In this document: positions 3,461-51,260 of the stretch, in pieces | Numbering within the stretch: the first letter of the stretch is position 1 | Layout of the letters: each line of letters begins with the position of its first letter | Virus genome (UHGV): UHGV-0174779 | Source of the DNA: a virus | Length of the DNA: 64,000 nucleotides | Strand: one strand, 5' to 3' | The notes under the pieces: generated by a model | Databases searched by the model: none | The model's input: only the letters and a program-made list of their open reading frames with translations | Told to the model about the DNA's origin: nothing | Position numbers and translations under genes: made by a program

Positions 3461-5002
3461 TTAGTAGCTCTGATTCCATCTGCTTACGTTTGCCTCATAC
3501 AAAGAAGCGCTTCCGTAGCTAACATCATGCTTAGAGCGACCACGATGTGTAACAGAGCACGCTGAATAGCGCATTGCATCCATTAAGTCATCATGTTCTT
3601 TAATAATCTTACCAACCTTACGGTGATATCTAGCTTTCTCTTCGAATAGCTTAGCGTTAGCGGCTGTGTTAAAGATTTTAAAGCGTCCACTCATCATTCT
3701 TTCACGGATATCTGTGATTCCCGGTTCTACAAAGAAGTTCTTTTTACCATCCATTCCAATTTTGTTGTAGAAGGTATCACTCTGTACGTTAACTCCTGCA
3801 TTCTTATAGAATTGAGCAACAGATGAACCACTACCTTTCTCAATATTGTCCGCATCATGCGGTAGGATGACAGGAATCCACTGACCACGACCATTAATAG
3901 CTGGAGCATGATACACTGGAGTAAAGCCACCTTCTTTATATGAGTCGTAAACATAGATAGTATCCGTGTTTGCGTCGTAAGCTGTCCAAACAGCAGCAGT
4001 TGGGTGATCAATACCAATATCAATTGCACAGACACGTTTCCACGTATCAGGAATTTCGAATGGTTCACATTTAATTGTGTCATCCGATACATCGTAAATC
4101 AAACCACTTCCTAACAATGGCATACCTTTTGAACGCATCTCTAATTGCCACGCTGGAATACCTTCAGTCATATCTTTTATATCTTGGTCAGTGATATGTC
4201 CACCTAGGTCTGCATGAGCATCCCACCAAGAAGCATTCTGGAAATATAGAGAACCTGTGTTCTCATCTCCTTCACCTTTCATAAATTTATCTACCAGTTC
4301 AGTTAAACCGTTCTCTGGTGTAGCTGTAATTGTAACTAGACCTTTAGTTGTGAGTGTACGTGTGACGCACTGTGCGAATATAGCCATAGACTCGTATGGA
4401 TCTTCTTCGTCTAACCAAATGTAATCAACTGTTGCACCCATCAATGTGTGTTCACCCTGTTGGGTTGAACGGAATTCTAATGTACTTAAACCGTCAAACT
4501 CTCCTCTCTCATTTTGATGTTTGATTTGTACGATTTGAAGTTTGTTACCATCTCGTTCTATCGTATCAATGACGATAGCATCACGAGGAATGACACCTGT
4601 CCCTAATAAATTTGTATCCTTTCCGATAGGTGTACCAAACAATTCCTTTTGCAATACTTTCCTTGTGGAATCCCCTGTAATACCAACTGCCCATGCTAAG
4701 ATAGGTCTTTTAAATTTATATCCTGTCCACCAAGTTGGGTAGCGACCTGTGACATGACAAGCAAACTCGTATGCCTCGCTATAAGATTTACCAACACGGT
4801 TCGCTGCACACAAGAATCTAAAGCGATGCTTCAATCCTGCTGCATAAAATTTCTTTTGGAAGTCATACGCCTTGAAAGACAAAATCCTATTATACTTCCT
4901 CCATTGGTCACGCTCTTTCAACATATTCAATAGTGCTTTCTTTTCATCTACACTAAGGTTGTTACCAGTTAGAGCTTCATAAATTTGTTTATCTAATGAC
5001 AT
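3461..5002 (-). CDS. terminase large subunit
   Basis: 513 aa; P-loop-like motif (FLCAANRVGKSYS) in N-terminal ATPase region, C-terminal nuclease-like region; RBS GGAGGAAG. Confidence 0.8.
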   Translation of the reverse strand: MSLDKQIYEALTGNNLSVDEKKALLNMLKERDQWRKYNRILSFKAYDFQKKFYAAGLKHRFRFLCAANRVGKSYSEAYEFACHVTGRYPTWWTGYKFKRPILAWAVGITGDSTRKVLQKELFGTPIGKDTNLLGTGVIPRDAIVIDTIERDGNKLQIVQIKHQNERGEFDGLSTLEFRSTQQGEHTLMGATVDYIWLDEEDPYESMAIFAQCVTRTLTTKGLVTITATPENGLTELVDKFMKGEGDENTGSLYFQNASWWDAHADLGGHITDQDIKDMTEGIPAWQLEMRSKGMPLLGSGLIYDVSDDTIKCEPFEIPDTWKRVCAIDIGIDHPTAAVWTAYDANTDTIYVYDSYKEGGFTPVYHAPAINGRGQWIPVILPHDADNIEKGSGSSVAQFYKNAGVNVQSDTFYNKIGMDGKKNFFVEPGITDIRERMMSGRFKIFNTAANAKLFEEKARYHRKVGKIIKEHDDLMDAMRYSACSVTHRGRSKHDVSYGSASLYEANVSRWNQSY

Positions 5003-5014
5003 ACTTCCTCCAGT

Positions 5015-5041
5015 TTAAAAATAGAAAAGGGAAAGTCCCTT
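5015..5041 (-). terminator. hairpin plus T-run between terS and terL
   Basis: AAGGG..CCCTT stem followed by T-rich run on minus strand. Confidence 0.3.
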
Positions 5042-5071
5042 CGTCAAAGAACCTCCCCTTCTTTCCTTTAC

Positions 5072-5545
5072 TTAACTCTCGTCCGCTTCCTCCCCCTTTT
5101 CAGCGTCCTCAGAGTTGTCTTCTTCTGGAGGCATAACGTCGATACCAAGTGCTCCAGTCAAGAAGTCCTTGATTTGTGCATTCAGTGAATCTTCGTTGAT
5201 TACATTCTCTTCCTCAATCTTAACTTCAACAGAGGCCGCCTTAGGATATACCAGATCTGCAACTTTTGATGCAGCCTTGAATCTAAGATCAGGTGGAATA
5301 TTGGGATCTTCGTAAATTTGAATTAACACTTCATCAGGAGACAAATGACTTGCAGCAACACGGTCCAACATTAATTGTGTCAGCTTACCTCTACTACCTT
5401 TGGGTCGTCCGAATTTATTTCCCTTTTGAAACTTCCCATTGCTTGGGTTCATACCACGGCCTTCAAGTTCTTCCGTTACTCCGGGTAATCTTCCTGTAAT
5501 CTCAGCTACCTGTGCAGGCGTGAGTTCTCCGTTTTCTCCAAACAT
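5072..5545 (-). CDS. terminase small subunit (putative)
   Basis: 157 aa, basic G/K/R-rich DNA-binding-like segment (GNKFGRPKGSRGK), acidic C-terminus, directly upstream of terL. Confidence 0.4.
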   Translation of the reverse strand: MFGENGELTPAQVAEITGRLPGVTEELEGRGMNPSNGKFQKGNKFGRPKGSRGKLTQLMLDRVAASHLSPDEVLIQIYEDPNIPPDLRFKAASKVADLVYPKAASVEVKIEEENVINEDSLNAQIKDFLTGALGIDVMPPEEDNSEDAEKGEEADES

Positions 5546-5568
5546 TTTATACTCCTTCTACATTATCA

Positions 5569-5596
5569 ACAACACAAAAAGCCTCCCAACGGAGGC
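5569..5596 (-). terminator. hairpin GCCTCC-CAAC-GGAGGC plus T-run
   Basis: Perfect 6-bp stem with tetraloop, followed on minus strand by TTTTTGTGTT; sits between ORF 5602-6003 and terS. Confidence 0.45.
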
Positions 5597-5601
5597 AAAC
5601 A

Positions 5602-6003
5602 TTACTTACAATCACCAACGGACAGATTAAACATCTTACCTAGAGCAATCGTCTCACCTTCCCACGGAAGTTCTGCACCCTTTCCTTCCTCTAAAAGAAT
5701 AGAGCCGTCGACCAAAAATTTTTCGTAGTCTCGCAGTGCGTCGTCTACTAATTCACTCTTGTGAATCCACGTAATTGTTTCTGTACCATCTTCTTCGATG
5801 CGAACATCACGATGCCATTCATCTTTGGAGGTAATGTAATCATGGAGCATTTCATATTCAGCTTCTTCAATCATCTCAATCATTGCACGAGCATAGTCAG
5901 GGAGGTGATCATATTTAGTAGATTCGTATTCAACTACTTCCAGAGTAGATGGTTGTGTTTTAGTTTTAGAATCAGGGCGAGTAGTGTGGATTAAATCTAA
6001 CAT
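5602..6003 (-). CDS. hypothetical protein (133 aa)
   Basis: ORF in minus-strand block, acidic product. Confidence 0.4.
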   Translation of the reverse strand: MLDLIHTTRPDSKTKTQPSTLEVVEYESTKYDHLPDYARAMIEMIEEAEYEMLHDYITSKDEWHRDVRIEEDGTETITWIHKSELVDDALRDYEKFLVDGSILLEEGKGAELPWEGETIALGKMFNLSVGDCK

Positions 6004-6006
6004 AAA

Positions 6007-6234
6007 TTAATATTCCTTATAAGTGTGTGGTTTGATAGTGGTGAACGCTCGGAAAAATAACCATCCTAGGCTACTAACTTCCATCGTTGCATCAAATTCT
6101 TCATCGTCATCTAAGTCAACCAGACGACCAATGCATTCTAATTCTTCAGGGGATATCTTAACAAAGGCACAAGTCTCTGTTCTGAACCGTGGAATCACCT
6201 CTGATAAAAAGTCTAATATTAAATTCATGATCAA
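6007..6234 (-). CDS. hypothetical protein (75 aa)
   Basis: ORF tightly packed with neighbours. Confidence 0.3.
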   Translation of the reverse strand: MIMNLILDFLSEVIPRFRTETCAFVKISPEELECIGRLVDLDDDEEFDATMEVSSLGWLFFRAFTTIKPHTYKEY

Positions 6235-6587
6235 TCTCCATAATCTAATTTAACCAACCGTCCGCCTAGGTATCCATAATTTTCTGGCTTAAGGTCTGAC
6301 AGGTAAAATTCTTTAGGAAGGGAGCCTTTCAAGGTGTGAAGCTCTGCCATCCACAATCCTCTGTGCTTAACCACCTTACACCTCTTCATTATTACTAAGA
6401 AACCAAACTTATCAGAGAAGACTACAGGACAAAGGTTGGGGTCTTTCATCTCAGAGAAATGTCTCTCTTGTAGGTTAGCAAGAATCCCTTTTAAGAAAAG
6501 CTTCCAAGATTTAAAAGTAGGAATCTTGATAGCATAACCTCTGAACAATATAACTGACCTAGTACAACCTCTTAAATCCAATCTCAT
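6231..6587 (-). CDS. hypothetical protein (118 aa)
   Basis: ORF overlapping neighbours by ATGA. Confidence 0.4.
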   Translation of the reverse strand: MRLDLRGCTRSVILFRGYAIKIPTFKSWKLFLKGILANLQERHFSEMKDPNLCPVVFSDKFGFLVIMKRCKVVKHRGLWMAELHTLKGSLPKEFYLSDLKPENYGYLGGRLVKLDYGD

Positions 6588-6694
6588 AATTCATCTCCCT
6601 TCTTTATTCCTAATAAGTCAGCGGCTATGTAACCAAACACAACAACAATAGGAACAGTGACAAAAAGAATTAAACCCAACAGTAACCATCCCAT
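6584..6694 (-). CDS. small hydrophobic peptide (36 aa, MGWLLLGLILFVTVPIVVVFGYIAADLL...)
   Basis: Alternative frame to track ORF 6618-6830; single predicted TM helix; stop overlaps ATG of next gene (ATGA). Speculative. Confidence 0.2.
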   Translation of the reverse strand: MGWLLLGLILFVTVPIVVVFGYIAADLLGIKKGDEL

Positions 6695-6871
6695 ACTTTT
6701 GTCCTCTGAGTAAAAAAAAATATAAAGGGCACATCATAAGACCTACCCGTAAAGGCCACCTCACATTAACACCCGTGAGTATACCTGTATTCCTTTTCGT
6801 AGTCTTCTTCAGAGAAGCTACCATATTCATCTTCAGTCATACATCCCTCTGATAAAAGTTAAAACATAAAG

Positions 6872-6932
6872 GGGACGTCATGTTAAGGCACTATCACATT
6901 AAGGCCATGTCACGTTAAGGCTACTTCATGTG
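6872..6932. repeat. three tandem ~18-bp iteron-like repeats (core TCAYRTTAAGGC)
   Basis: GTCATGTTAAGGCAC / ATCACATTAAGGCCA / GTCACGTTAAGGCTA read directly from sequence. Confidence 0.6.
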
Positions 6933-7097
6933 CAGTATCCAATCCCGTAATTAAACCCTCCATAGTTATATATAAGAGTTTAAAATCCTGATTTGACCGA
7001 GTGGGGCTAGCCGCTTCCCGCGCGTTTCCTAAAAAGGGGGAGTCCTCATTTAAAAAAGGGTTATTGGCAATGCCTTTACACCTCCTTCCACGTTCCA

Positions 7098-7535
7098 ACC
7101 TTTCCCCGTGCCTACTCCCCGTTATTCTTTCCCCGTGTATACTACCCAATACATTACCTACCCGTTTATTTAGTTCCCCTTTAAAGAGTGGATGAGAGGC
7201 TAGTCTTCCACTGTACCAATAGATTGAGGCGATATAATGCCCATGAGTAATAGTCACAAGCCCCCATAGTTTGAATGTAAATGATTCTAAATGTAATGAT
7301 TATGAGTGCAATAATGATGTATGTATTAATTAAGTGGATGATTGTATTTCTTTTAATAATTTCTTTTATTCCTTTCTTTTTTCAGCGTTCTGTTGGTCTT
7401 TTTCTTTTATGAGTTGATGATTATTTAAGTGGTATATTACTACCGCACTATCTAGCTACCTTTCCCCGTGGTCTGTCCTGCGGTTGTATGTCCCCGTCCT
7501 ATATAGATAGTAGAAATAGTTTACCCGTGGGCTTG
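7098..7535. repeat. cluster of CCCCGTG / CCCGT motifs flanking an AT-rich tract
   Basis: CTTTCCCCGTG occurs 3 times (about 7100, 7128, 7460) and about 10 CCCGT copies occur on one strand between 6740 and 7530; AT-rich stretch 7260-7440. Confidence 0.55.
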
Positions 7536-8375: not shown

Positions 8376-8705
8376 ATGAAAACTCTGATTGCATCTGCTC
8401 TTTTATCTGTAGCTGTTCTCTCAACTGTAGGATGCTCTTCTTCTCCGCGTCCCAATGGTTGGTGTGCTCTGGAAGTTGAGGGCACTTGTGTGATGCGTTG
8501 GAAAGATGGTGTTAAGGTTCCTGCTGGTGAGATTGATATGAAGTACGAAGGTGCTAGTTGCTCTAATGGTGGATCTGTTGATGAGAAGGCCTATCGTGAG
8601 CGTGATATGAAAACACAAGCTGATTGGAAGAAGTCAGACTTTATTTCCCGAGCAACTCATTGCGGTGGCAACACTTCCACTAAGGGTAAAGAATGGGACA
8701 TTTAA
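8376..8705 (+). CDS. lipoprotein (109 aa), paralog of 16350-16646
   Basis: Signal peptide with lipobox (LSTVGC); shares RPxGWCA..VEGxCV.RW..G.KVP.GEIDM...GA.CSN motif with ORF 16350-16646. Confidence 0.65.
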   Translation: MKTLIASALLSVAVLSTVGCSSSPRPNGWCALEVEGTCVMRWKDGVKVPAGEIDMKYEGASCSNGGSVDEKAYRERDMKTQADWKKSDFISRATHCGGNTSTKGKEWDI

Positions 8706-9635: not shown

Positions 9636-9894
9636 TTTCTAAGGCGATTGTATGCCTTACCCTCTTTTAGCTCGTTGTGATGCGTCTGAGAGCGTCAAAT
9701 ATTGCTTTACAAGCCTGTTCTAGTGTGTTATTCGCGTGCGCGTTCCTTTATATCTCTCCTCCCTGAAAATAATCAAAATAAAGGTTGCTTTCCTTCCTCA
9801 CTTCCTCTATTATCTATTCATCGGTTAAGCAGTACCAAGTAGACAACCTGATAAGTCGTACGAAAAACAGGTAATCGATAAGAAATAAAAAAGA

Positions 9895-9922
9895 TTGACA
9901 AGATGCTCAAACGTAGTAAGAT
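9895..9922 (+). promoter_or_regulatory. strong sigma70-type early promoter P1 (TTGACA-16-TAAGAT) with A-rich UP element
   Basis: Read from sequence; A-rich tract immediately upstream. Confidence 0.55.
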
Positions 9923-10041
9923 GGGTATCAGAAACAAAGCAAGGAAACTTGCAAATGCTCTTTAAAAACTTATCGTCCTGCCCTTTCGCAAAGATTCGCG
10001 CGAGATAAGGGAAAAGAATAAAAAGAGGACGATAAAAAGAG

Positions 10042-10069
10042 TTGACAAGGTAATCTAATAAGTTATAAT
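10042..10069 (+). promoter_or_regulatory. strong sigma70-type early promoter P2 (TTGACA-16-TATAAT)
   Basis: Perfect consensus hexamers, A-rich UP element. Confidence 0.7.
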
Positions 10070-10217
10070 GATTACCAGTTAGCAGATACACCGCTAACAA
10101 GTTCTTTAACAATATGACCTGATTCACTAGCCGAGCCGCTTAGTAATCCTCAATCAAATATAGCTGATTGATATATCCTCCCAATAAAGGGAACGACGAA
10201 AAAGATTAAAAAGATGG

Positions 10218-10246
10218 TTGACAGGCGCTGAGAGATAGGTCATAAT
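10218..10246 (+). promoter_or_regulatory. strong sigma70-type early promoter P3 (TTGACA-17-CATAAT)
   Basis: Consensus -35, 17-bp spacer, near-consensus -10, A-rich UP element. Confidence 0.65.
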
Positions 10247-12892: not shown

Positions 12893-13336
12893 GTGGCTAA
12901 ATCAAAAATCAGCATGAAGGGCGGTCGTTGTTTTGCTATCTCTGAATTAGAGAAAGAGAAACCAAAGGCAACCAATCACGTCAGTAAGCGTAGTTTAAAA
13001 CGTCGTGCTGCAAAGGCTGAGGCTGAATCCCATACTCCTTCCAGTGTGGCAAAACGTGTAGGCCATCGTGTTCATCGTGCTGATGCGTTATTGTTAGCCG
13101 ATCATAAACGTTCTTTATTACAGAGCGGGGGAGCTAAAACAGAAGAGGAGAAGAAGTTAGAAATCTTCTGTAATGGTCGCACCCGTGGTAAGCAGAAGTT
13201 TAAGGGTAGCACGAAAGACCCTCAAGCATTCCCTAAGACAAGCCAGTGCGCACCTGATGTTTTCTACGCAGATAGTAAACACAAGTGGGGAGTTGAAAAA
13301 TACATTGACCCCATCAAAGAGGCAAGGGTTAAATAG
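12893..13336 (+). CDS. basic protein of unknown function (147 aa, GTG start)
   Basis: ORF with AAAGGA RBS; K/R-rich. Confidence 0.45.
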   Translation: MAKSKISMKGGRCFAISELEKEKPKATNHVSKRSLKRRAAKAEAESHTPSSVAKRVGHRVHRADALLLADHKRSLLQSGGAKTEEEKKLEIFCNGRTRGKQKFKGSTKDPQAFPKTSQCAPDVFYADSKHKWGVEKYIDPIKEARVK

Positions 13337-13416
13337 TAGGACTATAGCCCCCTCTTTTAGTACTATGACGCTCTCTCTGTCGCGTAGTGCCCTCTCCCCA
13401 TTTGAAGCTTCCGCAT

Positions 13417-13439
13417 AGCCGCCTTTGAGCGGCTTTTTG
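13417..13439 (+). terminator. rho-independent terminator (AGCCGC-CTTTGA-GCGGCT-TTTTT)
   Basis: Read from sequence. Confidence 0.55.
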
Positions 13440-13501
13440 CGTTGCTGTAAGTGCATTTGCGAGTGTATTTATAGCAACGGTCATGTGTTGCTTTCAGGTT
13501 T

Positions 13502-13528
13502 GCCCCGGCTACGGCTGGGGCTTTTTTG
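13502..13528 (+). terminator. rho-independent terminator (GCCCC..GGGGC-TTTTTT)
   Basis: GC-rich hairpin plus T6. Confidence 0.5.
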
Positions 13529-13576
13529 TACCCGTAGAATAGGAGGTAGCAAGTTCTGATAACAACGGCCCAGCTA

Positions 13577-13966
13577 ATGTTGACATTGACTATTTATTAT
13601 GAGGCAGGGAATCAGCCAACCGCATGTAAAGCTATGGTTGCGGATACCGTGATAAATAGAATGGCCCAACGAAAACTGACCGCTGAACAGGTGATAAGAC
13701 AAAAGAACCAGTTTGAGTGGATTCCGGTACTATTAAAACAGGAGAAACCTTATAAACGTTATGTAAAGCTGATTCGTGATAAAAATCCGATGACTAAGCA
13801 AGCCATTGGAGAAAGCGAGCGGCTAGCTAAACGTGCCCTTAAGAAGAATTATGTTCCGCTGTACAGTGGGACTTACTTTCAGAGTAAGAGCGAAGGGGTG
13901 CCAAAATGGTATGCCAATCCTATGTATTGTGGTGATTTAGTGTTCGATAACAGCTCTAGGGAATAA
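13577..13966 (+). CDS. SleB/CwlJ-family cell-wall hydrolase-like protein
   Basis: IYYEAGNQP...VINR motif resembles the Hydrolase_2 (SleB) signature AEARGEP..VA.V.LNR; no signal peptide evident. Confidence 0.45.
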   Translation: MLTLTIYYEAGNQPTACKAMVADTVINRMAQRKLTAEQVIRQKNQFEWIPVLLKQEKPYKRYVKLIRDKNPMTKQAIGESERLAKRALKKNYVPLYSGTYFQSKSEGVPKWYANPMYCGDLVFDNSSRE

Positions 13967-14164
13967 TCACTGGTGCCAGATTTGACAAACTAAATTCCTT
14001 TATAAACCAACCACTTAGTAAATTTATTGAAAAAGATGGTAGTATTCTGGGACTATGGTAATGCTCTGTATATAGACCCTTTGAAAATTTCTTAGAAAAT
14101 AAGTTTACTAAATATAACTTACTTAAATAATATTACTTTTAATCTCTGATAAAGGGTAAATAAT

Positions 14165-14467
14165 ATGACTTTAGAGATATATAAATTCCTTTTTGTAAGC
14201 TGTTTAACTATCAGCGTTATAGGATTTATTGTTCTAAGAAACAAAGCAGCAAGCTGGGAGAGAAAGTATAAATCTTTGATTCAAGTAGATGAGATGTATA
14301 ATGAGAAAGTTAAAGTAACACTCAACGATCTTATTATGCAAGTAGAGGACAGAAACAAGCGTCTTCAGAATCTTAACCATGAAGTATTACGCCTTGCTCG
14401 TGCTAATGAAGACTTGCGAGTAGCTATTGCTAAGCAGCAGGAGCTCTCTGACGAGCTTAAAGTATAA
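14165..14467 (+). CDS. membrane-anchored coiled-coil protein (100 aa)
   Basis: N-terminal TM helix then heptad-like region. Confidence 0.45.
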   Translation: MTLEIYKFLFVSCLTISVIGFIVLRNKAASWERKYKSLIQVDEMYNEKVKVTLNDLIMQVEDRNKRLQNLNHEVLRLARANEDLRVAIAKQQELSDELKV

Positions 14468-14778
14468 AAAACTAAGTAACATCAACCTATAGCCCTTGTG
14501 TTTATCAGAGGGCTATGTGAGGGTGTTCCTCATTAACTTATTAATTCAGGCATATGCCACACCGCTAGGGAGAGCTTGCTCAAACATCCGGTGCTAGACT
14601 AAAACCTGTTAATTTTCGATATACTTTCTGATATGTAGGGGTACATATTGGTTTGGGATTTAGGAGACTCTCTAGGGGTAGGGAGTCTTCACTAGTTTGT
14701 AGAGTAATTGGCTCTATAGTGAGAGTCATCCGCTATATCAACTGGCAATAATGCCTCCACTAATAGAGAGAGATAGGT

Positions 14779-14919
14779 ATGAAAGTATCAACCAAACGTA
14801 TGAACCGCCCTGAACGTATGGATGCAGTAGCTAATGGTGCTCTGAAACTGGAAGGCTTCTGGCTTCATGCAATGTCAGCCATCCGTAACAAGCAAGGCAA
14901 TTGGACCTATAACAGTTAA
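14779..14919 (+). CDS. small protein (46 aa)
   Basis: ATG with GAGATAGGT RBS; below track size cutoff; followed by terminator. Confidence 0.3.
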   Translation: MKVSTKRMNRPERMDAVANGALKLEGFWLHAMSAIRNKQGNWTYNS

Positions 14920-14928
14920 TAAATAAAA

Positions 14929-14957
14929 GGCTGCCTTCGGGTGGCCTTTGTTGTTTT
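14929..14957 (+). terminator. hairpin with UUCG loop plus T-rich run
   Basis: GGCTGCC-TTCG-GGTGGCC then TTTGTTGTTT. Confidence 0.4.
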
Positions 14958-15001
14958 AATTAAGGGACAGCTCTTACTTAAACTAACAAGAGGAAGCTAA
15001 A

Positions 15002-15178
15002 ATGTCTAAGCAAACAATCAAGAATACGCAAGCTGGTTACTCTTATGTTAACTCTCCTTGCTGTGGTGCTCGTGTTAATCTGGTTAAGGAAGAGGTTCAT
15101 ATCATTCAGCGTGGCGCTACTGTTGTTCGTTCATGCTGTGTCTGTGGTAATGACATTTTTATCAAAGGTAAAGTATGA
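15002..15178 (+). CDS. small zinc-ribbon-like protein (58 aa)
   Basis: CCGAR...CCVCG cysteine pairs; RBS GAGGAAG; stop overlaps next start. Confidence 0.35.
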   Translation: MSKQTIKNTQAGYSYVNSPCCGARVNLVKEEVHIIQRGATVVRSCCVCGNDIFIKGKV

Positions 15179-15447
15179 AAAAGCTTATAATCCTAGTGTG
15201 TCTTATCTCTGCATTTGGCTGTAAGGAAAGGGAGAGTATCTACAAAAGTGACTATGAAAGTTCTGGGTTTTGGTACGGAGGTTTCAGGTCAGAGCCACAT
15301 ACAGCAGATAATATGCTATTCTCCGTAAAAAGAAGCTCACAAGAACTTTCTTACTATGCATGTGCCTCTTTAGCTGAAGCTCATACCAAAACATATCCGG
15401 ACGGTGGTAGAATATATTGTCTATATCTAGGAAAATGGGAAAACTAA
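15175..15447 (+). CDS. lipoprotein (90 aa)
   Basis: Signal peptide with lipobox (ISAFGC). Confidence 0.45.
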   Translation: MKKLIILVCLISAFGCKERESIYKSDYESSGFWYGGFRSEPHTADNMLFSVKRSSQELSYYACASLAEAHTKTYPDGGRIYCLYLGKWEN

Positions 15448-15449
15448 TC

Positions 15450-15701
15450 ATGAAAAACTTCCAAGCTGCACCAATAACTAAAGTGATCGCAGTTAATGAT
15501 GTGATGATGACTGTTCCTCTGAACACTCGTCACATTGCGATTGATAAGATGGGCTATGTGTGGGCTTGGAAGATTAAGCCCTCGTACAATGAACTCTTTG
15601 ATGAGTTTGTTTGTACTGGCACATATAGCCCTACGTTCTTGGGTTTGTTTGGAGAGTTTGAAGGTCAGTATAAAATCATCACTCTCCCTGCTTGTGCTTG
15701 A
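15450..15701 (+). CDS. hypothetical protein (83 aa)
   Basis: ATG just after upstream stop. Confidence 0.4.
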   Translation: MKNFQAAPITKVIAVNDVMMTVPLNTRHIAIDKMGYVWAWKIKPSYNELFDEFVCTGTYSPTFLGLFGEFEGQYKIITLPACA

Positions 15702-15710
15702 GGATTAACG

Positions 15711-15812
15711 AGAGCTCTTAGTGAGGGTGTATCTTCCCCGCCTTCTAAGCGGTCGTTAAAGAAGTAAATGGAGTATGCAGGTTCGAGTCCTGTCACCCTC
15801 GCTAAGAGCTCT
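15711..15812 (+). other. long hairpin (about 18-bp stem) enclosing a tRNA-like T-arm (GGTTCGAGTCC); possible RNase III site or degenerate tRNA-like element
   Basis: AGAGCTCTTAGTGAGGGTG pairs with CACCCTCGCTAAGAGCTCT; internal GCAGG-TTCGAGT-CCTGT resembles a T stem-loop; a UCU anticodon-like loop (CCGC-CTTCTAA-GCGG) is present but I could not fit a canonical cloverleaf. Confidence 0.3.
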
Positions 15813-15821
15813 TGAGGTATT

Positions 15822-16337
15822 ATGAAGCTAGATCTAAGTAAAGCAGTTGTTGATAAAGGTGTTGGTTATTTGTATGTGTACCAACCAACACACCCTATGG
15901 CCAATAAAGCTGGAAAGGTGTATGTTCATAGATATGTTGCTCAAAATTTCTACGGTGTCGAACTGAACTCTGACCTAGTGGTTCATCACAAGGATGAGAA
16001 TAAGTTAAACAACGAACCATCTAATTTAGAAATCATGACTTATGAGGAGCATAGCAGGCACCATCATGGGGCTGTCATGGAAGAAAGGTTATGTTCTTTT
16101 TGTGGAGAGATTTACCTTGTTTCAGAGAATAGCAACCAAAGGTTTTGCTCACAGCTTTGTGCCAAATTAGATAGCAGACGGTTTGAAATAACAAAAGAAT
16201 CTCTTCAGTCTTTAATAGACATTTACCCCGTGTATGTAGTAGGGAGGTTACTGAGTGTTAGTGATTCGGCTGTCCATAAGAGATGTAGGATTCTTGGTGT
16301 TGTTAAAAAGCCGAAAGGTTTTTGGTTAACTAAATAG
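15822..16337 (+). CDS. HNH endonuclease
   Basis: HNH motif (VVHHKDENKLNNEPSNLEIMTYEEH). Confidence 0.6.
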   Translation: MKLDLSKAVVDKGVGYLYVYQPTHPMANKAGKVYVHRYVAQNFYGVELNSDLVVHHKDENKLNNEPSNLEIMTYEEHSRHHHGAVMEERLCSFCGEIYLVSENSNQRFCSQLCAKLDSRRFEITKESLQSLIDIYPVYVVGRLLSVSDSAVHKRCRILGVVKKPKGFWLTK

Positions 16338-16349
16338 AATGAGGTAGTT

Positions 16350-16646
16350 ATGAGTTGGGGTGGTGTAATATCCTTAATCTGTATCTTCCTTGTCTGTGTG
16401 GTCCTTACAGGCTGCGTACAGAGCCGTCCTGATGGATGGTGTGCAGTAGCAGTGGAAGGTGTTTGTGTTTCTCGCTGGCATAAGGGTGAGAAGGTTCCTT
16501 CTGGTGAAATTGATATGCGCTGGAACGGAGCAACCTGCTCTAATGCTAACCCGTCTATCAACGAAGAGAAATCTACGCCAGACAATGTTGTGATTGACAC
16601 AGCGTTGTGGTGTGGTGGCTCAGTAAAAACAACCGGTAAGGAGTGA
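16350..16646 (+). CDS. lipoprotein (98 aa), paralog of 8376-8705
   Basis: Lipobox (LTGC) and shared motifs with 8376-8705. Confidence 0.6.
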   Translation: MSWGGVISLICIFLVCVVLTGCVQSRPDGWCAVAVEGVCVSRWHKGEKVPSGEIDMRWNGATCSNANPSINEEKSTPDNVVIDTALWCGGSVKTTGKE

Positions 16647-16650
16647 TAAT

Positions 16651-16893
16651 ATGACAGCTCATTATTGGAACACAAAGAAGCTTCTTGAAGAGATGGCTGG
16701 AAGTAGCAGAGTACAGCTAATATCTATGCTTCGAAGGGATGCTCGCTCTTTACGCTTCCAAGTAAAGATTGGTAACTTCAGTGATGGTCTTTATTACACA
16801 TTGAAGGAAAGGATTAAGAAGACATACTTCATTATATATGGTTGCCCTAAGGGCGATTTTACTTATGACTTTTGGAATACTGACTACGATTAA
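16651..16893 (+). CDS. hypothetical protein (80 aa)
   Basis: ORF, tight spacing. Confidence 0.4.
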   Translation: MTAHYWNTKKLLEEMAGSSRVQLISMLRRDARSLRFQVKIGNFSDGLYYTLKERIKKTYFIIYGCPKGDFTYDFWNTDYD

Positions 16894-16902
16894 GGAGTTA
16901 TT

Positions 16903-17124
16903 ATGTTGTTAGAAGCTGAGCAATCATTGCCAGTAGTCCCTCTGTCCTCACTTCCTATCGGAAGTGCTTTTAGACATGGGGAGGTTTTTTGGATTAAGGG
17001 TAATCAAGTGGTTGGAGGGTATATCACCTGCATCAACATTGGCAACGGTGTTGTTGATGGTTTTCGTCCAGCCGCTGAAGTCACTCCTCAAGCTGATGCA
17101 AAGGTTGTAGGTTTAGTTTATTAG
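16903..17124 (+). CDS. hypothetical protein (73 aa)
   Basis: ORF with GGAG RBS. Confidence 0.4.
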   Translation: MLLEAEQSLPVVPLSSLPIGSAFRHGEVFWIKGNQVVGGYITCINIGNGVVDGFRPAAEVTPQADAKVVGLVY

Positions 17125-17441
17125 AGAGTTACCATGATCAAATCGTGACTATCGTGAAGGATTCTTACGAGAGTCCTTTGAGATAGGACTTCAGATCTCC
17201 TATCAAACTAACATTCACGTAACTAGCCCATAAGGGGCGTTACCCTTTAATAACCCAGCCCACTAAGGGGGGCGGGAGTTTAGTGCTGGATTAGCATAAC
17301 GCTTATTCCTACAAAGGCAACCGATTGTTAGATCTTACATGCAAACTTAATTAATAGGATATGGGAGGATTCGTCCCCTCCCCCTATTTTATTGAATCTT
17401 TATCTAAGCAAGTCTTATATAAATGTTTAATAGGAGGTTAT

Positions 17442-17753
17442 ATGAAACCCGCACAAATCCAATGGACTCCTTGGCAGATTGATTTGCTGAAGAAGCTTAT
17501 CAGTGAACATTCTGTTGAAGAAACGGCTGTCATGATGGGAACAACAGCACAGATTATTAATGCTGCGTGTTCTCGTTTTAAAATCTCTCGTGCTAAAGCT
17601 CGATTGAAGTGGTCTGAAGAAGAAGATCAGTTTGTTATCCGTAATGCCGGGTTCATGTCTATTCAGAGAATGGCTGACATGCTCGGTAGAAGTTATGCTG
17701 CTGTACAGAACAGGGCATGTATGCACCTTAATATTAGCCTCAAACTTAAATAG
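17442..17753 (+). CDS. tandem Myb/SANT-like helix-turn-helix DNA-binding protein (103 aa)
   Basis: Two W-containing HTH-like repeats (WTPWQIDLL..., WSEEEDQFV...); strong RBS TAGGAGG. Confidence 0.45.
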   Translation: MKPAQIQWTPWQIDLLKKLISEHSVEETAVMMGTTAQIINAACSRFKISRAKARLKWSEEEDQFVIRNAGFMSIQRMADMLGRSYAAVQNRACMHLNISLKLK

Positions 17754-17761
17754 GAATCAAT

Positions 17762-18007
17762 GTGAAGATCATTCCCAAGATTAAAGATAATACTGTTTCC
17801 TTGTCTACTATCATTCCCGGAAACCCATTCGTAATTCAACGTGGCTCAGCATCTCCTCAATATTACATGAGAGTTGAAAACACTTCTAGCAATATTAGTG
17901 TAGTTAACGGTTGGATTACTGTGGTAAATCTTCTCACAGGGGTCTTATGTGCTAAAGGTGCTGATACTCAGGTGGAAATGATTCGCATGTCAGTGGTTCA
18001 GGAGTAG
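17762..18007 (+). CDS. hypothetical protein (81 aa, GTG start)
   Basis: ORF only. Confidence 0.35.
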   Translation: MKIIPKIKDNTVSLSTIIPGNPFVIQRGSASPQYYMRVENTSSNISVVNGWITVVNLLTGVLCAKGADTQVEMIRMSVVQE

Positions 18008-18158
18008 CGTAATTATTCGGTTCGTAAACGGACAGAAAAAGGTAGCTAAATAAGCCCTCTTCTCTCCTCCTTTTAGTACTATGACGCCTCTTTTTAGGCG
18101 GCCCAATTTGCGTAGGGAATTCCCTCTACGCAGCCATAATTTTTAAGGAATTTCCCCT

Positions 18159-18392
18159 ATGTCTAAAGTAAGTGCAATTGATGCAATCCGTCAACCGTTC
18201 CAGTTCCAATCCAAATCAACCCAAACCTTCAGCGAATCTAAGCAAATTCGCTTGGGTGGCACAGAGAAAACTGTGTTCGATCTGGCTAAAAACAAGAGCG
18301 TTACCGTAGTTGATGGTGGCACTCTGGTTAACGTTTCTCATCGCATCCGCACTGGCAAAACTGCCAAAGACCGTACCAAGAAAGGTGAGTAA
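18159..18392 (+). CDS. hypothetical protein (77 aa)
   Basis: ORF only. Confidence 0.45.
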   Translation: MSKVSAIDAIRQPFQFQSKSTQTFSESKQIRLGGTEKTVFDLAKNKSVTVVDGGTLVNVSHRIRTGKTAKDRTKKGE

Positions 18393-27863: not shown

Positions 27864-28045
27864 ATAAGTATAAAGTTCTGTTTAAAGATACCAATGCCGC
27901 TGGTGAAATGCGAGCTATGGACCTAGATGCTGATATGTTTAACTTCTCTGATGGCAAAGTGACCTTCTTTCAGGGAAGTGAAGCTGTTGCAATGTTTGAG
28001 AGTGCAGCAATCTGTGGTGTAATCAAAATCTTTATTACAGAGTAA
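27860..28045 (+). CDS. small protein ending in ...ITE (61 aa)
   Basis: ORF overlapping upstream stop; C-terminal Glu. Confidence 0.4.
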   Translation: MNKYKVLFKDTNAAGEMRAMDLDADMFNFSDGKVTFFQGSEAVAMFESAAICGVIKIFITE

Positions 28046-38339: not shown

Positions 38340-38348
38340 TAATGTATA
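38340..38348 (+). promoter_or_regulatory. TAATGTATA element, candidate phage-sigma-dependent (middle/late) promoter
   Basis: Exact 9-mer 37 nt upstream of ATG 38385; same 9-mer recurs at 42799 (+) and 51252-51260 (-). Confidence 0.4.
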
Positions 38349-38384: not shown

Positions 38385-38702
38385 ATGGCAGACCATGTAG
38401 GAAAGAGAGATTATGCACAAGAAAGACGTACCGCAATTGCCCGTGGTGAAACAGGCGTTGGGAGCAAGAGCGGAGATGCTCAGCGCCACCGTGCACGTCG
38501 CATCGTTGAAAAGCGCGATGGAAAAGCTGCTGTCAGAGGTAAAGACGTTGGACACAAACGAGCTGTCAAGTCTGGAGGCTCTAATGCGTCAAGCAACTTA
38601 CGTGTTGAATCAGTCAGCTCAAACCGTTCAAACGGCGGCAAAAGTGGTGATCGAGCTGGAAAAGCAGCTGGATCTCGCAAAGGAGCTTTAAGCTCATCAT
38701 AA
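38385..38702 (+). CDS. basic low-complexity protein (105 aa); alternative overlapping frame 38413-38691 possible
   Basis: Strong RBS AAGGAG 7 nt upstream of ATG 38385; followed by terminator. Confidence 0.35.
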   Translation: MADHVGKRDYAQERRTAIARGETGVGSKSGDAQRHRARRIVEKRDGKAAVRGKDVGHKRAVKSGGSNASSNLRVESVSSNRSNGGKSGDRAGKAAGSRKGALSSS

Positions 38703-42606: not shown

Positions 42607-42798
42607 ATCACGCAGGTGGCTCCTGCCCTTCCGGTAGTCTCTCAATTTCTTACAAACTTATGAGAGATTGTCGTCTGCGCCTTATCGTCGTCAGTCCCGT
42701 GCAATAACTTTATCAGCTATACAATATATACATTACTGGTATGTTATATCTACTACCAAAGATACTTATACTATATAGTACTCTTATCGGTATAAGCG

Positions 42799-46866: not shown

Positions 46867-46906
46867 AAAGCCCTCTTGGATTTCTCCTTGAGGGCTTTTC
46901 TTTTAT
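46867..46906. terminator. bidirectional terminator between convergent plus and minus gene blocks
   Basis: AAAGCCCTC...GAGGGCTTT hairpin flanked by A-rich (left) and T-rich (right) runs. Confidence 0.55.
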
Positions 46907-49900
46907 CACTCCTTAGGTCGAACTCTTACACGGAGTCTCGATTGACGCTTACTGCGTTCAAGCTTCTCTGACAATGAGCCACGTTTAATCTTCGGCTTCC
47001 CTTCGTCATTAAACTTCTCCAAGAACTGTAAGTACTCAGTACGATTCGTTGTCTTGTAAGAAGGAATCTTAATATCAGGGTTCTCTTCAATCACGCGTCT
47101 CATCTTCGCTACATCATCCCTGCCAAGCAACTTACTCTTAGCCTGTTCAGCTGTAGAACCAAAGATCTTCTCCAGTGCTCTGGATTTGTTACCACCTGCG
47201 GAAGAAGCACCAAGTTTAGCAATGGCAGAATAATCATCAGCACTAAACCAAGCTACTGGATTATCACCATACTTCTTCTTGTTTTCAGCAGCAGTCTGCA
47301 ATGCACGTACAAAGCGACGGTTGTTACCAGCCTTGTCAGCACCATGAACCCTGTCTAAAACTTCAGCCACACTGACTAACTCATCTAAGCTCTTCCCATT
47401 TAAGAAAGCTTTCTCTGCTTTATCAGCAAAGGCTTCTTCCTGTTGTTTGATACTTTCCAAGATATCGGAACTTGCTTGAGATCTTTCATCGTCAGGCAGA
47501 GCAGAACGAACCTTCTCCATCTCCAACTCTTCCTCTTGCAGTTTCTTAATATCAGAGTCAACCTTCTGAGCCTCCTCAACAGCCTTCCTAGTATCCGCAT
47601 CCAAGTTATCAAGCTTACCTTCAGTATCTCCAGTAACCTTAACAATCTCTTTCTCGATAGGAGTCATTGATTCGTACTTCTTAGCAAACTTCTCAACATC
47701 AGCCTCGATACGAGAACGAGCATTCTGATGCTCAGTCGGAGTCATAGGCTTCTCAAGAAGTGCATAACGGTTATCCATATAGGAACCAGCAAATGCTTCA
47801 GCATCCTCTCTAGATATGCCCTTATCTTCCATAGTACGCATCAGGCGGCGATGAATATCATCACGTTGACGTTGTACTGCCATAAGATCATTCTCACGCT
47901 CTTGGGCCGCTTTAAGCTCTTCACTGCGCTTAACTCTCTTGTCCACATCAAACTTACGGTTCATTTCTTCCGCTTGCTCATACATCCTGTTCCACTTAGC
48001 CTGACGAGCATCTTCCTCTGCATCAGTTAAACGACGCTGACGATCAAGGTAATCTGACTCGGCGTTATGGATACGTTCAATGTAACTACGGAACTTCTCT
48101 GGAGGAACTGGAGAGTTCTTATCGTGGTGAGCAGCCAACTGTTTCAATGTACGAGATTCCTGAGCCTCACGAACAGGTTTAGGTAAACCTTCCATCATCT
48201 TCTCAATCTCACTCTTCTGAGCTGCAATAGCCTCTAGAGTTTTACGTTCATTCTCAACAGCAGCCTTAGCATCTGAACGAGCCTGAGCTTTGTTTTTCAG
48301 AGTAGCAAGACGTTCTTCACGAGCTTGTATGTGTTTAGCAAAAGCTTCGTACTGAGAGTTTTTGTTAGCTTTATTGAAGGCATTCACTTCTCTGTTATAG
48401 GTGTTAATAAACCCATCCCAAATATCCTTCATCTGACCAACTTCCAAAGCCTCCTCCCTACCAGCCTTCTCTGAAGATTTAAACTTCCCATCTACAAAGT
48501 CATTCATCAACTTACGCATAGCATCTTTCTGAGCAGGACGTAAAGGTTCTGAATCAATCAAAGCATCAATCTCAGACTGAAGCTCTTTCTTCTGGTCAAC
48601 CAGTTTAGGAGCATCTTTCCTATCAAAAGCTTTGTTCTCTTCTAGAGCTTGTTGATACAACCTATCAAACTCATCCTCACGCTGCTTCTGATACAATCTT
48701 TCAGCACGACGTTTCAGACTATCCAAGTTAGTCACGTTCCCACCTAAACCTTTCTCCTCAGCACGTAATGCCTTAGTAGCAATGTCTTCTGGTAGACCAC
48801 GTTCCTTAACCCATTCAGCAAAATTAGTTCGTACAGTGTTGTTCTTAGCAGTAGCAATACCTTGCTGAGAAGCTAGCTGGTTACGAGCCATTTCTTCATG
48901 ACGTTCAGTGTTGATAGCATTATCTTCCTGACGAATGCGACGCATCAATTCCTTAGGGTCACCTTTATAAGCCAAGAAGTTTTCAGCAGTAGCTTTAGCC
49001 TTAGCAGCTTTAGAGTACAGAGAACGAGCAAAACGTTCTGCACGATCTTTAGTAGCCTGACGAGCAGCACTAGACATAGCAGCTAAACGTTCTACACCAC
49101 TTGCCGGTTTAACGTCCTGTACAGCTTCCTTAGGAGCTTTAGGAGCACGGGCAGGTAATGGCTCAGCTTTGACTGTTGGTTCCTCTACAGTTGGTTCTGG
49201 AGCCTGTGCGGCCTCTTCTTGAGCACGACGTTGTTCTGCCTGTTTAACTGCGCGTCTTTGAGCAACTAAATCACGAGCCGTAAGAGGGGTTTCTTGAGGA
49301 GCAGAGGAAGGAAGATTTTCTTCCGTCACAGTACTAGAAGAAGGCTCCCGAACCGGTTCGGTTTCCACATCATTTTGAGTCTTAAATTTAATGTCATCAA
49401 CAACTGGTTCTTCTTCCATCTTAGCCCGAGCTTCATCAGCAGTAGATTTAGCACGAGCAACTTCCAAATCACCACGAGCTAAAGAGCGGATAGCTTCACT
49501 GTTAGATTCTTGTTGCTTAACACGTTGAGAGCGAGCACGCTGAGAAGAGAAGCGATTCAGAGCATATTTAGCAGCACCGAGAGTATTCATTACCAGACTA
49601 GGAGAAGAAGCCTCACGGAAGCCATCATCAGTCAGGGAAGTCCAGCCACGATCTTGGTTGCTCATGAACTTAGCCGTATTGTTCAGAGTGTAAGCATCTT
49701 GGATAGGATTAAAACCTTCAGGCATACCTTTCAGTTTCTTCAACCCACCGATAGCTTTCTTCATCTCTGGAGAAACATTATCAGCCATCTTCTGTAGTTC
49801 AGTAGCTTTCTCTACAAAGTTATTAAAATCTTCACCTTCACGAGCTTTGAATCGATTTGCTTCATTGTAGAAAGTCTTGTAAGCATCAATGAAATCACGG

Positions 49901-51213
49901 TCAGCTTGTGTACGATTCTTAATATCAATCGGACTACCAGTAAAATCACCAGAAGCTCGGAGAGAAGTTAATTCACGGTCTAGGTTATCTAGAACATCTG
50001 TAAGAGCTTTCGTGTTGTCTTTGGTGTAGTCAGCCATCGCATCCTTCATAGCAACAGCCTGTTTCTGGTTGTGCTCATTATCAGCGAAAGCTTTACCACG
50101 AGTCTTAGCAGGAGAAGCTAAAGGATTAAGGCCAGGAATATTGGAATGTTCTTTCTGAACAGAAGCAGCTTTCTCAGCACGAGCTTGGTCAGTATTAAGA
50201 ATACGCTGAGCAGCAGGAGAATCTACAGCAACAGCATCTGTAATACGGAATCCATTCTCATCCAGAAGATTCAGAGCAGAAGCAGCGTTAGCAGTTTCAG
50301 CTTTAGAGTAAGCTTCTTTCAATTCATCAATATTTTTAGCACTACGAATCAGTTCGTCATCAGCAGCAATATCAGTCTTCGCATACTCTGGAGTGTTCTT
50401 GAAGACAGCAGAATCCGGACGGCTAATCAAACCATGAACTCCACCAACTGCGCCACCAAATGCAGCACCCATAGCCCCTTCTTCTATAACACCTTCCAAT
50501 GTCTTAGCTAGATCATTGTCATCACCATATTTGTTCTGAACCTCAGCAGCACCAACAAGAGCACCACCTTTAGCACCAGCCACTGCGTTACTAGCAACGT
50601 TCTGACCGATACGACCAAGAGCTGATTCAGCTGTCCCAACAGCACCCGGAAGGATTCTTTGAGCTGCATAGTTAGCACCACCAACTAGGGCTGCATCTAG
50701 AACAGACTTATCTTCCCCCTCTTTAGGGGTTTGGTCTGCATATGCACGACCGGTCTCACGACCTGCAATGATAGCAGCGGCAGCTAATGGGTTAGCAACT
50801 GTCAGACCAATGTCGGCAACCACCCCAGCATACTGACCAGCAGACTTACCAATCCCATCCTCAATCTTATCCATACGTTCTTTCAAGAGGTTTTGAGCGT
50901 TCTCTTGCATACGCTTCCCGTAACCAGTTTGTGCTCCAGTTAGATCTTCACCAATCTCAACTAAGCCTCCAATACCTCTAGCAAGATTAGCAGAGATATT
51001 TGCACCACCAGATTGAAGAGCATTTGACACACCTTGAGCAAACTCACCTATAGCACCACGTTCTTCTTGTTGTGGTTGTGCTACTGGTTGTTCCTCAGGA
51101 ATAGAGCCACCTGCTGCCTTATATTGTTCTCTCATTTGAGCTTGACGCTCCGGAGAGGCATTCAGATACGCAGGAGCTTTGGAAGCTTCTTCCCACGGTT
51201 TAATGTTAGCCAT
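46906..51213 (-). CDS. large virion protein (1435 aa), glycine-rich hydrophobic N-terminal region plus long coiled coil; putative internal/ejection or tape-measure-like protein
   Basis: Start at ATG 51213 (MANIKPWEE) with AAGGAG RBS rather than track start 51258; composition typical of phage internal/ejection proteins. Confidence 0.7.
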   Translation of the reverse strand: MANIKPWEEASKAPAYLNASPERQAQMREQYKAAGGSIPEEQPVAQPQQEERGAIGEFAQGVSNALQSGGANISANLARGIGGLVEIGEDLTGAQTGYGKRMQENAQNLLKERMDKIEDGIGKSAGQYAGVVADIGLTVANPLAAAAIIAGRETGRAYADQTPKEGEDKSVLDAALVGGANYAAQRILPGAVGTAESALGRIGQNVASNAVAGAKGGALVGAAEVQNKYGDDNDLAKTLEGVIEEGAMGAAFGGAVGGVHGLISRPDSAVFKNTPEYAKTDIAADDELIRSAKNIDELKEAYSKAETANAASALNLLDENGFRITDAVAVDSPAAQRILNTDQARAEKAASVQKEHSNIPGLNPLASPAKTRGKAFADNEHNQKQAVAMKDAMADYTKDNTKALTDVLDNLDRELTSLRASGDFTGSPIDIKNRTQADRDFIDAYKTFYNEANRFKAREGEDFNNFVEKATELQKMADNVSPEMKKAIGGLKKLKGMPEGFNPIQDAYTLNNTAKFMSNQDRGWTSLTDDGFREASSPSLVMNTLGAAKYALNRFSSQRARSQRVKQQESNSEAIRSLARGDLEVARAKSTADEARAKMEEEPVVDDIKFKTQNDVETEPVREPSSSTVTEENLPSSAPQETPLTARDLVAQRRAVKQAEQRRAQEEAAQAPEPTVEEPTVKAEPLPARAPKAPKEAVQDVKPASGVERLAAMSSAARQATKDRAERFARSLYSKAAKAKATAENFLAYKGDPKELMRRIRQEDNAINTERHEEMARNQLASQQGIATAKNNTVRTNFAEWVKERGLPEDIATKALRAEEKGLGGNVTNLDSLKRRAERLYQKQREDEFDRLYQQALEENKAFDRKDAPKLVDQKKELQSEIDALIDSEPLRPAQKDAMRKLMNDFVDGKFKSSEKAGREEALEVGQMKDIWDGFINTYNREVNAFNKANKNSQYEAFAKHIQAREERLATLKNKAQARSDAKAAVENERKTLEAIAAQKSEIEKMMEGLPKPVREAQESRTLKQLAAHHDKNSPVPPEKFRSYIERIHNAESDYLDRQRRLTDAEEDARQAKWNRMYEQAEEMNRKFDVDKRVKRSEELKAAQERENDLMAVQRQRDDIHRRLMRTMEDKGISREDAEAFAGSYMDNRYALLEKPMTPTEHQNARSRIEADVEKFAKKYESMTPIEKEIVKVTGDTEGKLDNLDADTRKAVEEAQKVDSDIKKLQEEELEMEKVRSALPDDERSQASSDILESIKQQEEAFADKAEKAFLNGKSLDELVSVAEVLDRVHGADKAGNNRRFVRALQTAAENKKKYGDNPVAWFSADDYSAIAKLGASSAGGNKSRALEKIFGSTAEQAKSKLLGRDDVAKMRRVIEENPDIKIPSYKTTNRTEYLQFLEKFNDEGKPKIKRGSLSEKLERSKRQSRLRVRVRPKE

Positions 51214-51251
51214 AACGTCTCCTTTTATAAATAAAAATGTCCTACCCCCTA

Positions 51252-51260
51252 TATACATTA
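51252..51260 (-). promoter_or_regulatory. TAATGTATA element (minus strand), candidate late promoter for the 1435-aa gene
   Basis: Exact 9-mer on minus strand about 40 nt upstream of ATG 51213, within a hairpin-forming segment. Confidence 0.4.

Follow-up and report, generated by a model that had tools for sequence, protein, structure and literature searches.

In the Pseudomonas putida phage tf, all 14 physically mapped nicks lie in the sequence 5'-TACT/RTGMC-3', and TACTATGAC was described as the main putative site in phages LUZ24, PaP3 and MR299-2 (Glukhov et al. 2012, PMC3517423). Nanopore sequencing of the Pseudomonas phage Rembedalsseter likewise detected 13 strand breaks at WACTRTGAC, and 60 related Pseudomonas phages show an enrichment of this motif (Dougherty et al. 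2025, PMC11780129). Here we consider an 18-bp repeat, CTTTTAGTACTATGACGC, in the virus genome UHGV-0174779. The window, by which we mean the whole stretch of 64,000 nucleotides that was analysed, comes from a Kuravirus (phiEco32/SU10-like, Gordonclarkvirinae) with about 90% identity to many coliphage records in BLAST comparisons, and its early and middle transcription runs on the + strand. The 18-mer holds TACTATGAC exactly. Since its core, TACTRTGACG, equals the sequence that is nicked in the related Pseudomonas phages, it is most likely a nicking site and not a promoter, and we regard the repeat as probably a site-specific nick site of the tf/LUZ24 type in Kuravirus, a prediction from sequence comparison. 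Judging by the literature searched, such a site has apparently not been reported before for phiEco32-like phages.

The repeat is present in two exact copies on the + strand, at 13354-13371 (Site 1) and 18070-18087 (Site 2), both of them intergenic, within the early operon and 17-60 nt past a stop codon. A sequence-only reading of the window had already reported both copies in intergenic regions. That reading also took the 18-mer to be far beyond chance, and the numbers agree: 0.08 matches are expected when up to three mismatches are allowed, three matches were reached in none of 100 shuffles, and a chance origin of the repeat is excluded. Site 1, with the core TACTATGACG at 13361-13370, occupies the spacer that follows the open reading frame (ORF) 12893-13336, and the intrinsic terminators at 13417-13434 and 13502-13521 are downstream of it. 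Site 2, whose identical core TACTATGACG is at 18077-18086, lies upstream of ORF 18159-18392 (a phi32_93 homologue), and two hairpins are found 3' of it. A partial third copy had been suspected near 9655, which turned out not to be a member of the family: the element at 9660-9674 (+), CCCTCTTTTAGCTCG, has only the pyrimidine/TTTTAG left part in common with the repeat (CCCTCTTTTAG), and we do not count it because the core TACTRTGACG is missing and because it is only loosely conserved in phiEco32 and SU10. The true third copy, Site 3, is CTTCTAGTACTGTGACGG at 49340-49323 on the - strand, a 15/18 match with its core at 49333-49324, which falls within the 1450-aa late ORF 46906-51258 (a phi32_26 homologue) on the sense strand of that gene.

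A motif search in relatives, which the sequence-only reading had put forward as a check, found the element at orthologous positions in 75 Kuravirus-group records and elsewhere in one chance match only, when a 34-nt probe was used. Nearly every Kuravirus record carries it in exactly two places, and EcoN5 in three because its site-2 module is duplicated. Given that Kuravirus genomes are about 90-95% identical overall, conservation within the genus says little and it is the cross-genus comparison that is informative; this comparison included EP335 (Nieuwekanaalvirus), ECBP2 and SU7 (Suseptimavirus), Bas89, EK010 and 101114UKE3. At both orthologous intergenic spacers TACTRTGACG is kept across genera, with R (A/G) as the sole variable position, and the left half CTTTTAG is swapped for CAAC, TAGC or TAAC in EP335, ECBP2, SU7 and Bas89, where the flanks also differ; CTAC is a further replacement seen in the set that includes EK010 and 101114UKE3. 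Kuravirus and Suseptimavirus retain the full orthologous set of three, EP335 and Bas89 retain the two intergenic sites, and Site 3 keeps TACTGTGACGG in Suseptimavirus despite differing surrounding codons. The complete phiEco32 genome has three TACTRTGMC sites only, at 27941 (+), 63070 (-) and 70592 (-), which are the same sites as in the window, Site 1 carrying TACTGTGAC; each of them is followed by G and lies on the sense strand of its own transcription unit.

The consensus TACTRTGMC (WACTRTGAC) is matched by all three window sites, and so is an extended form, G-TACTRTGAC-G. Among the tf sites, which we took from the tf genome, the 9-mer is followed by G in 12 of 14 cases, and the LUZ24 sites read G-TACTRTGAC-G, with the preceding G in 9/9 and the following G in 8/9. 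The 10-mer TACTRTGACG occurs three times in the window against 0.18 expected, a count found in 0 of 100 shuffles, and three times in phiEco32 against 0.21 expected (P about 1e-3). Its one-mismatch neighbours are scarce, with none in the window against about 5.6 expected (P=0.003) and one in phiEco32 against 6.8 expected (P=0.013). The phages are also related in gene content. A syntenic core that includes the amidoligase module, the primase/helicase (46% identity), the DNA polymerase, a 5'-3' exonuclease, TerL and the portal is common to the window, tf and LUZ24; the list for tf, with the genes in one and the same order, comprises the COOH-NH2 ligase, amidoligase, GATase and ATP-grasp module, the primase/helicase, an exonuclease subunit, the DNA polymerase, the 5'-3' exonuclease, the tail proteins, the scaffold, the portal and TerL. 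In all, about 17 real syntenic proteins are common to the window/phiEco32 and to tf, LUZ24 and Salmonella phage 7-11.

Relatives that bridge the two groups carry the motif as well. Salmonella phage 7-11 has 13 TACTRTGMC sites with a 12:1 strand split, the 12 being in early/middle sense and clustered at the early end, and the extended 10-mer is found there 11 times against 0.25 expected (P=5e-15). Proteus phage Privateer has seven sites, all on one strand, and five copies of the 10-mer against 0.13 expected (P=3e-7). In tf, 7-11 and Privateer, no 10-mer ranks above the motif in an unbiased k-mer count. Aeromonas phage LAh_9, which served to test the prediction, lacks the canonical motif altogether (0 against 2.35 expected), and its top k-mer is a one-base variant of that motif, ACTACGGTGAC, the most over-represented k-mer being given as TTACTACGGTGAC; TACGGTGAC is found in eight copies against 0.34 expected, together with one TACGGTGCC site. 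These variant sites are split 7:2 by strand, mostly on the early/middle sense strand, and one of them is in a large late gene that closes the late cluster, as phi32_26 does. The enrichment in these bridging phages makes the motif family a hallmark of the whole supergroup, that is, of the LUZ24/tf-like Pseudomonas phages, the phiEco32-like and 7-11-like enterobacterial C3 phages and the Aeromonas Lahexavirus, within which Kuravirus is the group with the minimal set of three predicted sites.

We propose that the functional core TACTRTGACG would be a member of the TACT/RTGMC recognition-site family and that, in middle or late infection, a phage-encoded sequence-specific nuclease would sever a single strand of the motif after T4 and before R5; the resulting nick, with ligatable 3'-OH/5'-P ends, would then be packaged in the virion. 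The predicted nicks fall between 13364 and 13365 (+) at Site 1, between 18080 and 18081 (+) at Site 2 and between 49330 and 49329 (-) at Site 3. The repeat had earlier been taken for a third regulatory signal, either a promoter, a processing site or a factor-binding site; the idea of a site recognised by a protein probably stands, and those of a promoter or a transcript-processing signal find no support: no sigma70-like or gp36-like promoter overlaps Site 1 or Site 2, no Rfam family matches, the core that is kept across genera is also present within coding sequence in the window and in relatives, and this core is identical to a nick consensus that was mapped physically.

Several observations weigh against a nick site. 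The 9-mer TACTRTGMC by itself is not enriched in the window (3 against 1.6-2.3 expected). There are three sites only, and they are found on both strands (two on + and one on -, each in the local sense), so that they do not share a single strand, whereas tf and LUZ24 have 9-14 sites, all on one strand. All three Kuravirus sites have a CTTYTAG left flank in common, and tf has no such flank; each site is adjoined by a hairpin that begins in GACG or right after it, another feature absent in tf, and the phiEco32 stems measure 6, 6 and 5 bp, where the background probability is 0.028 for 6 bp or more and 0.10 for 5 bp or more. The hairpins, the flank, the nearby terminators and the sense-strand placement would be equally compatible with a role at the RNA level. 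No report of nicks in any Kuravirus was found in the literature searched, and full-length Nanopore reads have been reported for Kuravirus YF01. These reads are not decisive, because the ligation-kit library may have included a nick-repair step, which is our assumption and is not stated in the paper.

The rival explanation that survives best, although we find it unlikely, is that of an RNA-level signal in the early polycistronic transcript, where UACURUGACG and a hairpin would together form an RNase processing or stability element, a pause site, a terminator or an antiterminator. The sense-strand placement of all three sites speaks for it, and so does the position of the intergenic ones, immediately past a stop codon and with intrinsic terminators or hairpins close behind; at each of the three sites a hairpin overlaps GACG. 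The Site 1 hairpin (13368-13385, +; ACGC-10 nt-GCGT) starts inside the core, the Site 2 hairpin (18085-18100, +; CGCCT-CTTTTT-AGGCG) overlaps the 3' end of the core and has a second, longer hairpin 3' of it at 18108-18133 (+), and the Site 3 hairpin (49324-49310, -; GGAAGA-AAA-TCTTCC) comes after the core. Across genera the hairpin is kept in varied forms (GACGCU...AGCGUC, CGCCU...AGGCG and GGAAGA...UCUUCC), and a U-run comes after the site-2 hairpin of EP335. However, what is invariant across genera is the single-stranded 10-mer and not the stem sequence, and the same 10-mer is found within coding regions of 7-11, Privateer and tf, where hairpins are not above background; the hairpin as a general feature of the motif family was rejected on the tf result. 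Moreover the motif is a proven DNA nick site in tf, and two of the tf nicks are antisense to late genes. In the window, the fold z-scores of the spacers are unremarkable (-1.3 and -1.4), no Rfam family or tRNA was matched at the motif sites, and the Site 1 hairpin is cut down to 4 bp by a substitution, most relatives having GACGCU-loop-AGCGUC with 6-7 bp.

It is less probable still that the repeats mark module junctions, either as short homology linkers for the exchange of early cassettes, kept alike by gene conversion, or as the target of a homing endonuclease. Gene content does change exactly at both early sites: an additional gene of 174 nt has its end within Site 1 in Paul and EP335, a 265-aa gene is inserted directly behind Site 1 in phiEco32, and EcoN5 shows both a left-end operon relocated to that place and a second copy of the site-2 module. 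The two exact Kuravirus copies also share seven extra nt on the left. Such linkers would nevertheless leave unexplained the identity of the core with the tf nick consensus, the genome-wide depletion of near-cognate 10-mers and the one-strand intragenic enrichment in 7-11, Privateer and LAh_9. Because nicks are recombinogenic, we prefer to view recombination as something that a nick might bring about and not as a rival to it, and the changes in gene content at the early sites would fit nick-stimulated recombination. As a separate observation on EcoN5, the segments 4566-7121 and 13121-14962 show phi32_125-127-like genes (annotated as 'polymerase' and 'terminase') after Site 1, and a duplication of the motif together with 234-nt and 216-nt genes.

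The weakest reading, a third promoter class or a transcription-factor operator, for example for the D5-like/Myb-like regulator encoded at 17361-17753, is highly improbable: although the sequence is conserved in intergenic spacers upstream of gene blocks and contains a palindrome, TAGTACTA, and a weak -10-like TACTAT, it has no -35 or extended -10, a consensus scan finds no promoter at Sites 1 and 2, Suseptimavirus, EP335 and Bas89 keep the asymmetric core but not the palindrome (CAACTACT, TAGCTACT), Site 3 and most of the 7-11 and Privateer sites are intragenic, and the phiEco32 promoter maps, in the summary available of them, give sigma70 and gp36 promoters only. The repeat had already been held to differ from the sigma70 and TAATGTATA (phiEco32 gp36 sigma) promoter classes, and this was upheld, as it is unlike TAATGTATA and no match to either class overlaps it. 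Three strong sigma70 promoters are found in the window at 9895-10246, where they match the described SU10 and phiEco32 early promoters.

Other readings were set aside. N4-like vRNAP hairpin promoters were dropped, since BLAST shows a Kuravirus. A primase site was rejected by reasoning only: the complement has GTC, but the predicted primer 5' end (A8) is off the mapped nick T4/R5. A link to the genome terminus was considered for GTACAGTG, which is found near the right repeat junction of phiEco32 and is 7/10 like the motif; the likeness was judged to be chance because the spacing to the end differs in the window. Assembly start points are known near Site 1 (NJ01, PE006 and MN03), and none coincides with a predicted nick. 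Finally, ORF 18159-18392 was rejected as the RNAP regulator gp79, given that its annotation is that of a phi32_93 homologue and that gp79 is about 10 kb further.

If Kuravirus DNA is nicked at these sites, a candidate for the nickase is encoded at 38385-38702 (+), a 105-aa basic protein of a putative small HNH nuclease family and a homologue of phi32_58. Its assignment to TACTRTGACG is put forward tentatively, as a possibility drawn from the following comparisons. When the proteins common to phiEco32, 7-11, tf and LUZ24 are compared, the phi32_58 family (~100 aa) is the most conserved protein common to all the motif-bearing phage groups examined, with 55-62% identity across hosts. It is included in phrog_4590 (function unassigned), and some sources label homologues as HNH or McrA. 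The Pfam HNH family PF01844 was matched by 39 of 50 homologues (best E 8.8e-5), the window protein itself having no match at E<=1; H57, N71 and N80 do not vary among the HNH homologues, and N67 hardly does. At residue 56, Gly replaces the near-invariant Asp before the catalytic His in the window Kuravirus and in Suseptimavirus ECBP2 (DVGHK vs VDHK). Homologues are found in 247 phage records from Pseudomonas, Escherichia, Aeromonas, Proteus, Salmonella, Cronobacter and Vibrio. An exact TAATGTATA, the middle-promoter element of the gp36 sigma factor, is present at 38340-38348 (+), 37 nt upstream of the gene, in line with a promoter that has been published for phiEco32 ahead of gene 58. A sequence search of the HNH profile against the PDB gave no match, and the tf nickase was not identified in the literature searched.

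Some further observations concern this gene. The genera with G56 are also those with three motif sites only. Other exact copies of TAATGTATA are found at 42727 (-), 42799 (+) and 51252 (-), the last of which lies where the late ORF containing Site 3 begins. In tf (16126-16413) and LUZ24 (15622-15930) the HNH-like ORF is in a frame that differs from the annotated tf_29 and LUZ24 gp26 ('transmembrane protein'), and these two annotations are probably wrong-frame calls.

In a wider scenario, which we consider speculative and rather doubtful as a whole, nicking at TACTRTGACG could be ancestral to the podophage supergroup, with phi32_58/phrog_4590 as a nickase that would have co-evolved with its site (TACT mostly, TACG in LAh_9); Kuravirus would have been pared down to three hairpin-associated sites, and its early nicks, at places where genomes differ in early-gene content, could perhaps be recombination hotspots that drive the turnover of cassettes. 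To our knowledge, the biological role of such nicks in packaged DNA is unexplained in every phage studied. Should the prediction be true for the E. coli Kuraviruses, the question would become directly testable in a tractable host, with three sites to mutate, one small candidate gene and about 100 sequenced isolates, including BASEL phages. The range of the motif would also widen from Pseudomonas to Escherichia, Salmonella and Proteus phages and, with altered specificity, to Aeromonas phages. Annotators and phage engineers would be warned that conserved intergenic repeats such as these are probably not promoters, and coverage by native long reads may fall at the motif sites.

A few features of the window and of its relatives are reported here in their own right. 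The 193-bp terminal repeat is collapsed in the window, at 7009-7201. The sequence CCCTYTTTTA is found in four copies against 0.34 expected, at 7051-7060 (-) and at 9660, 13350 and 55429 (+); one of the copies is the CCCTTTTTTA repeat in the 193-bp terminal repeat, which was described in the SU10 paper as variable between reads. At 15723-15801 (+) Rfam gives a tRNA with 30.2 bits (gathering score 29), and ARAGORN gives none in the whole window; this is probably the tRNA-Arg annotated in relatives, perhaps in a divergent form. A 121-nt direct repeat with 70% identity, at 8448-8568 and 16425-16545 (+), is found between two small early ORFs, which are probably paralogues. The jumbo phages Serratia phage BF, Erwinia pEa_SNUABM_12/19 and Yersinia fHe-Yen9-04 have, within their PhoH genes, a 25-nt stretch that matches the Site 3 region at 92%, and with an E of about 0.8 this match is likely due to chance. 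The phiEco32 sites 70592 and 63070 (13361 and 18077 in the window) are at 9.0% and 18.7% of the genome from the early (right) end; the first two major nicks of T5 are at about 8% and 18%, and the likeness is probably a coincidence.

Knowledge of site-specific nicks in the DNA that phages package goes back about 50 years, to T5, and the Kuravirus case can be set beside several such systems. With T5/BF23 (R/GCGCRGG) and the phiKMV-like phages (CGACxxxxxCCTA/CTCCGG) it would have in common strand- and sequence-specific nicks in packaged DNA with a dispensable or unexplained role, but the consensus sequences and the phage lineages are unrelated to it. The small HNH nicking endonucleases (I-HmuI, Gme HNH and the HNH protein of phage GVE2) differ from the window protein, which has G and not D before the catalytic His, falls below the Pfam HNH family and has a function that is predicted only. 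The Rembedalsseter cluster has the same motif, which is mainly found on the coding strand and gathers near one end of the genome; the survey of this cluster reported enrichment within the Pseudomonas phage cluster only, and Kuravirus, Suseptimavirus, 7-11, Privateer (C3-type podophages) and Aeromonas LAh_9 were not reported there as motif-bearing. The closest parallel is with tf (Krylovvirus) and with LUZ24, PaP3 and MR299-2 (Bruynoghevirus), where the same 9-mer in its TACTATGAC and TACTGTGAC variants is found next to a G, some sites are at early gene boundaries, one-mismatch variants are scarce and a core of replication, amidoligase and structural genes is syntenic. These phages differ from Kuravirus in having 9-14 sites instead of three, and in having them all on one strand, whereas the Kuravirus sites occupy both strands and always the local sense one; the CTTYTAG left flank and the adjacent hairpin are found in Kuravirus only, and the nicks that have been mapped in tf are, for Kuravirus, predicted.

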